Source: Escherichia coli
GTDB taxonomy: Bacteria > Pseudomonadota > Gammaproteobacteria > Enterobacterales > Enterobacteriaceae
Assembly (NCBI RefSeq): GCF_003334315.1
Contig: NZ_QOWR01000008.1
Length of the DNA: 64,000 nt
Reading direction: 5' to 3' (one strand)
Shown here: piece after piece, positions 19,724 to 20,182 of the stretch
Numbering within the stretch: position 1 is the first letter of the stretch
Layout of the letters: every line of letters begins with the position of its first letter
Notes under the pieces: model-generated
The model's database searches: none
What the model was told of the DNA's origin: nothing
The model's input: the letters and a program-made list of their open reading frames with translations, nothing else
Made by a program: the position numbers and the translations under genes

Positions 19724-20182
19724 ATGAATCCCCTGCGTGTCGATCTGCGCGCTGGCACCTTCGCCGCAGATCCACTCTTCCAGACGCTCGGTAAGCGCTT
19801 CATCCGTCAGCTTCTCGCGCCCACGTAATGCACACTCCCAGACAATCAGTACGCGCCAGCCGAGTTCCTGCAAACGACTGATATCGCGGCGATCGCGTTC
19901 AACATTTTTACCTATCTTCTCCAGCCAGAACTCGGTTCGAGTCGCAGGCACTTTAAACAGATAGCAGTGATGATGATGCCAGAAGCAGCCATGGGTAAAT
20001 ATCACGCAGCGATATTCATCAACGACAAAATCCGGGCGACCGGGCAGACTGGCGTCCTGAACGCGAAACGCCAGGCCCTGCCCGGTTAACAGACTGGCGA
20101 GGCGCTTCTCAATCGCCGTATCACGCGTGGCAATCGCGCGCATATTTTTGCTGCGAGTGGCCTTATCGTGAACGTCGGCCAT
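19712..20182 (-). CDS. vsr: very-short-patch repair endonuclease Vsr
   Basis: 156 aa from ATG ([15 protein letters not shown]); overlaps 3' end of dcm in another frame. Confidence 0.9.

Follow-up and report, generated by a model that had tools for sequence, protein, structure and literature searches.

Where does the very-short-patch repair gene vsr begin relative to the end of dcm, and what does its position imply for the synthesis of the two enzymes? Dcm methylates the inner C of CCWGG, and where deamination of this 5-methylcytosine leaves a T:G mismatch, Vsr nicks the DNA 5′ of the T. The question arises in a 64,000-nucleotide stretch of the Escherichia coli contig NZ_QOWR01000008.1 (RefSeq assembly GCF_003334315.1), referred to here as the window. 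Its initial annotation placed the vsr start codon inside the last codons of dcm, in a different frame, and regarded this as the classical arrangement for translational coupling.

Both genes are read from the minus strand. The dcm open reading frame, which encodes a DNA-cytosine (C5) methyltransferase of 472 residues, runs from 21581 to 20163 (1419 nt) and ends in ...EAQHGRRSR. The vsr frame runs from 20182 to 19712 (471 nt) and translates into a T:G mismatch endonuclease of 156 residues; both lengths were found by script to be multiples of three. In NCBIfam profile searches, Dcm matched PRK10458 at 950.4 bits over residues 1–469 (cut-off 710) and also scored 351 bits against TIGR00675, and a 100%-identical RefSeq record names the gene dcm. 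Vsr matched TIGR00632 at 182.7 bits (cut-off 97.85), with its residue 1 aligned to profile position 1. Its sequence shows 100% identity to that of the E. coli enzyme solved in PDB entries 1CW0 and 1VSR; chain A of 1CW0 starts at Ala2, and 1VSR and 1ODG are N-terminally truncated. The Vsr of the window and that of a K-12-like record are one and the same RefSeq protein, WP_000786005.1. With profile scores far above the cut-offs and full identity to 1CW0, the two gene assignments are secure.

The overlap, ATGGCCGACGTTCACGATAA, spans 20 nt at 20163..20182 on the minus strand. It comprises codons 467–472 and the stop codon of dcm and, in the other frame, codons 1–6 and two bases of codon 7 of vsr. 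The dcm stop codon, a TAA at 20163..20165 whose position is shared by Salmonella and Klebsiella, follows 17 nt downstream of the vsr ATG (20180..20182). The A of this ATG is the second base of dcm His467 (cAT), which places vsr in the +1 register (offset 1) relative to dcm. A Shine-Dalgarno-like AAGAGG at 20189..20194, also inside dcm, ends 6 nt before the ATG. There is no intergenic leader to vsr; its Shine-Dalgarno sequence and ATG both fall within the last 32 nt of dcm. Read on the minus strand, the overlap, start position and change of frame given by the initial annotation are exact to the base.

The description of this junction as classical holds only in part. The Shine-Dalgarno sequence and start codon are indeed embedded in the upstream gene, but the textbook coupling overlaps are stop-start junctions of 1 nt (TGATG or TAATG) or 4 nt (ATGA), compared with 20 nt here. 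Classical coupled pairs such as trpE-trpD and trpB-trpA resemble dcm-vsr in that the genes share a strand and the downstream Shine-Dalgarno sequence and start codon sit inside the end of the upstream gene; their overlaps are 1–4 nt, whereas the vsr start is set well back from the dcm stop.

Nine RefSeq records were examined at the junction: six from E. coli, one from an E. coli Δdcm strain, and one each from Salmonella and Klebsiella. The same 20-nt overlap is annotated in E. coli HS30-1 (100% identical), in the K-12-like record and in four further E. coli lineages selected for divergence at the junction, as well as in Salmonella enterica and Klebsiella pneumoniae. Because the same geometry is annotated across all three, the overlap is not a chance artefact of open reading frames. 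A 2-kb probe was found in 5,368 of 5,426 complete E. coli genomes, the annotation always being yedJ, dcm, vsr and yedA; it is 100% identical to HS30-1 and about 98.5% identical to the K-12-like record. A 100-nt probe of the junction matched with at least 95% identity in 5,320 of the 5,426 genomes and with at least 99% in 3,574, and in many E. coli genomes the match to this probe was 100%.

The E. coli K-12 dcm-vsr operon was reportedly described by Sohail et al. (1990, J Bacteriol 172:4214) and Dar & Bhagwat (1993, Mol Microbiol 9:823). The window agrees with K-12 in the Vsr protein, the 20-nt overlap, the +1 register and the synteny, and no difference was found at the junction itself. MG1655 matched an engineered probe with GCT as vsr codon 2 at 99% over its full length, as fits a junction identical to that of the window. 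The two differ in the Dcm accession, which is WP_001157238.1 in the window and WP_001157239.1 in the K-12-like record. The overlap has been known since 1990–93 and was rightly called expected; no anomaly was found at the junction.

The Salmonella and Klebsiella loci are like the window in the overlap, the positions of TAA and ATG, the Vsr N-terminus and the neighbouring genes, and unlike it in the Shine-Dalgarno region and the last Dcm residues. Both records came from a plasmid collection, with a neighbourhood of chromosomal type (phosphohydrolase/yedJ, yedA and DUF808/yedI). In Klebsiella pneumoniae, vsr starts with a tandem in-frame ATGATG (record positions 1998..2003), of which the second ATG is annotated; counted from the first, 3 nt upstream, vsr would share 23 nt with dcm. 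In E. coli CM13, most of dcm is gone, and its last 72 nt (record positions 2656..2727), annotated as a partial hypothetical CDS, are kept before an intact vsr. The deletion looks as if it had been engineered to spare the ribosome-binding site and start of vsr.

The surroundings of the junction in the window are those of a standard E. coli chromosome, with the fli operons, rcsA, dsrB, dgcQ, yedI, yedA, vsr, dcm, yedJ and drpB, and the chromosomal order yedJ-dcm-vsr-yedA is preserved. At its other end, vsr overlaps the convergent yedA (plus strand, 18803..19723) by 12 nt (19712..19723), leaving no room between the genes for an intergenic terminator; the two 3′ ends are annotated in the same way in E. 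coli and Salmonella, and the overlap is 26 nt in Klebsiella. An intact ORF of 414 codons lies at 23289..24533 on the plus strand. Its counterpart in HS30-1, of about 404 residues, is annotated as 'porin OmpC' between hchA and drpB, and we take the locus to be that of yedS, a porin pseudogene in K-12. Two small RNAs expected in this region of E. coli scored above the Rfam gathering thresholds: the Hfq-binding rseX (97.7 bits, 22917..23006, plus strand) and DsrA (102.5 bits, 14466..14552, minus strand). Four tRNA matches of 72.6 bits each fall at 33839, 47323, 49144 and 51553, dispersed on both strands of a region of about 18 kb; the HS30-1 record has tRNA-Asn at the three of these positions that its examined part covers. 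They presumably represent the known dispersed cluster of asn tRNA genes. A fifth match, at 32761..32847, corresponds to an annotated tRNA-Ser.

The assignment of the ATG at 20182 as the vsr start is well supported. It is the first ATG or GTG of the vsr frame; upstream in frame there are only three TTG codons and one ATC, and the next in-frame ATG, GTG or TTG downstream is codon 14. The AAGAGG motif is predicted to pair with the 3′ end of 16S rRNA at -5.8 kcal/mol, among the top 9.6% of positions (background mean -2.5). Residues 1–16 of Vsr are invariant in E. coli, Salmonella and Klebsiella; a single E. coli lineage carries Vsr A2V, which is silent in dcm. Within the overlap, the codon changes between genera (GCC to GCG, GAC to GAT) are silent in vsr but alter the tail of Dcm, which ends in QHGRRSR, VDGGRSR and NDGGCSR in the three genera. 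This indicates that selection in the overlap acts on the vsr frame. Ten Vsr homologues, seven of them distant, start at the aligned residue, and the N-terminus of the distant proteins follows a common pattern of Met (or a GTG or TTG start codon), any residue, Asp, Val/Ile and Val/His. Starts at the upstream TTG codons (20233, 20254 and 20344) were considered and rejected; they are excluded by an in-frame TAG that immediately precedes the vsr ATG in Salmonella, and the upstream region is unconserved in the vsr frame.

A start outside dcm, the result that would have undone the overlap as a functional feature, could be sought at Met14, whose ATG (20143) is the sole in-frame ATG, GTG or TTG that the first 45 codons offer beyond the dcm stop. 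Initiation there is highly improbable. This ATG has practically no Shine-Dalgarno pairing (-2.0 kcal/mol), and it would leave residues 1–13, which are invariant in three genera and show synonymous changes only, outside the protein. The TIGR00632 alignment beginning at residue 1, the N-terminal pattern shared with distant Vsr proteins and the 1CW0 chain that begins at Ala2 speak against it as well. Vsr lacking its first 14 residues (Vsr-Δ14) shows reduced endonuclease and very-short-patch repair activity (PMC2715241), again at odds with a protein that begins at Met14. As these independent lines agree, a vsr start outside dcm is very unlikely.

The start codon of vsr is fixed while the length of the overlap varies, both between and within species. 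Ten junctions between a methylase gene and vsr were sampled, and in every one the two genes overlap at the vsr start, by 20, 8 or 1 nt. The 20-nt form, ATGGC(C/G)GA(C/T)GTTCACGATAA, occurs in the three enterobacterial pairs of chromosomal type (the window E. coli, Salmonella and Klebsiella). The 8-nt form, (A/G/T)TGNCTGA, for example ATGGCTGA, has the same +1 register and occurs in four alphaproteobacterial methylase-Vsr-restriction operons on plasmids, and the 1-nt form, TGATG, occurs on plasmids of Pseudomonas, Aeromonas and Burkholderia. The plasmid operons (Pseudomonas, Aeromonas, Burkholderia, Sagittula, Neorhizobium, Rhizobium and Acidiphilium) are like dcm-vsr in that vsr comes straight after a gene for a C5 methylase and starts within its stop region, and their Vsr N-termini are homologous to that of E. 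coli Vsr. They differ in that a 1- or 8-nt overlap belongs to a restriction-modification system, whereas the 20-nt overlap of E. coli joins a solitary methylase to Vsr.

A single base, the third of vsr codon 2 (window position 20177), separates the E. coli junction from the 8-nt type. With GCC at this codon the dcm frame reads CGA, and with GCT it reads a TGA stop. A GCT probe matched at 100% in six complete E. coli genomes among the 5,320, namely FT130, GD33, YZ22PE244, 613, 571 and 774. The FT130 junction reads cATGGCTGAcgtt, and RefSeq annotates there a Dcm of 468 residues and an 8-nt overlap (record positions 201-208). These six genomes share their junction type with the alphaproteobacterial plasmid operons. 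The existence of natural GCT variants indicates that overlap length is evolutionarily labile, and the last four residues of Dcm appear, from these sequences, to be dispensable. It is conceivable, though quite improbable, that overlap length is a naturally variable setting, in which the change of codon 2 from GCC to GCT switches the overlap from 20 to 8 nt and could alter the efficiency of re-initiation.

Translational coupling of vsr to dcm is the accepted explanation for the overlap. It is very probable that dcm and vsr form an operon with one mRNA, in which the embedded start ties the synthesis of Vsr to that of Dcm. Both genes would be read from this single transcript, and ribosomes finishing dcm would travel across the vsr initiation site. 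The position of the ATG 17 nt before the dcm stop allows two routes: the passing ribosomes may keep the site unfolded, or they may move back a short distance from the stop and initiate again. By both routes, production of Vsr would be linked to that of Dcm, so that cells making the mutagenic methylase would also make the repair enzyme. Dar & Bhagwat (1993) are said to have found that vsr lacks a promoter of its own, that no fusion protein is made and that efficient translation of vsr requires translation of dcm. In the window, a simple sigma-70 scan of the minus strand, a weak test, detected nothing promoter-like inside dcm, and a promoter and terminator scan of that strand near the junction gave nothing usable. 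Observed directly at this locus are the identities of the two genes, the extent of their overlap to the base, the vsr start codon with its Shine-Dalgarno sequence, and the conservation; co-transcription and the dependence of vsr on dcm translation are added from the literature or by inference. A full-text literature search on translational coupling of vsr and dcm returned nothing relevant. The two genes have been described as co-transcribed in one operon (PMC4924334, PMC12907096) and dcm as overlapping vsr in part (PMC4444293).

In a competing minority explanation, the overlap is an evolutionary by-product: dcm would have read on after loss of a stop codon, vsr would initiate independently, and any effect of dcm on vsr would reflect transcriptional polarity rather than coupling. 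We consider this unlikely, although several observations can be accommodated by it. The vsr Shine-Dalgarno sequence is reasonably strong, good enough to permit independent initiation, and no significant occluding structure was found: the fold of 140 nt around the vsr start has a z-score of -0.92, with 32 of 200 shuffled sequences folding as well. Predicted access to the vsr initiation region is about 500-fold poorer than to the dcm start, which would weakly favour a masked site; the value itself is unremarkable (30th percentile of positions). The Dcm tail within the overlap is unconserved, and the 20-nt and 8-nt (ATGGCTGA) forms are one base apart, a base that is synonymous in vsr and that six natural E. 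coli genomes carry in its 8-nt state. Against a by-product stands the placement of the vsr start in all ten sampled junctions, which overlaps the upstream stop region and never follows a spacer. So does the requirement of dcm translation for efficient vsr translation, reportedly found by Dar & Bhagwat (1993). Two reports bear on the same choice. With the dcm-6 allele, an early nonsense mutation (codon 45), vsr activity is lost as well (PMC4444293, which cites Dar & Bhagwat 1993). This result speaks against fully independent initiation and is compatible with translational coupling, but it is also compatible with transcriptional polarity and, taken alone, does not tell coupling apart from Rho-dependent polarity or from mRNA decay. 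Higher abundance or activity of Vsr in stationary phase has been reported (PMC2715241, PMC12907096; citing Macintyre et al. 1999). Such a shift with growth phase agrees with separate initiation and suggests that the Vsr:Dcm ratio may not be set by coupling alone.

That +1 ribosomal frameshifting within the overlap instead yields Vsr as part of a Dcm-Vsr fusion is barely credible. The +1 register of vsr relative to dcm is the one feature in its favour. A canonical Shine-Dalgarno sequence and an ATG at the homologous N-terminus of Vsr argue for ordinary initiation, the species that was crystallised and is active is a free Vsr of 155–156 residues, and the 1-nt overlap junctions are in a different register. 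The vsr-frame stop just 5′ of the ATG in Salmonella, moreover, would confine any frameshift to the 20 nt of the overlap. Coupling of vsr to dcm translation is the reading that we favour.

Confirmation of the overlap matters little beyond correct annotation, and the junction shows the window to be ordinary E. coli chromosome. The overlap is the textbook E. coli tie between a mutagenic cytosine methylase and the repair enzyme for the T:G mismatches that follow from its activity. To this, a variable overlap length around a fixed vsr start is one small and slightly fresh addition. If overlap length did act as a setting, it could shift the Vsr:Dcm ratio, and with it the mutation rate at CCWGG hot spots, in a few lineages.
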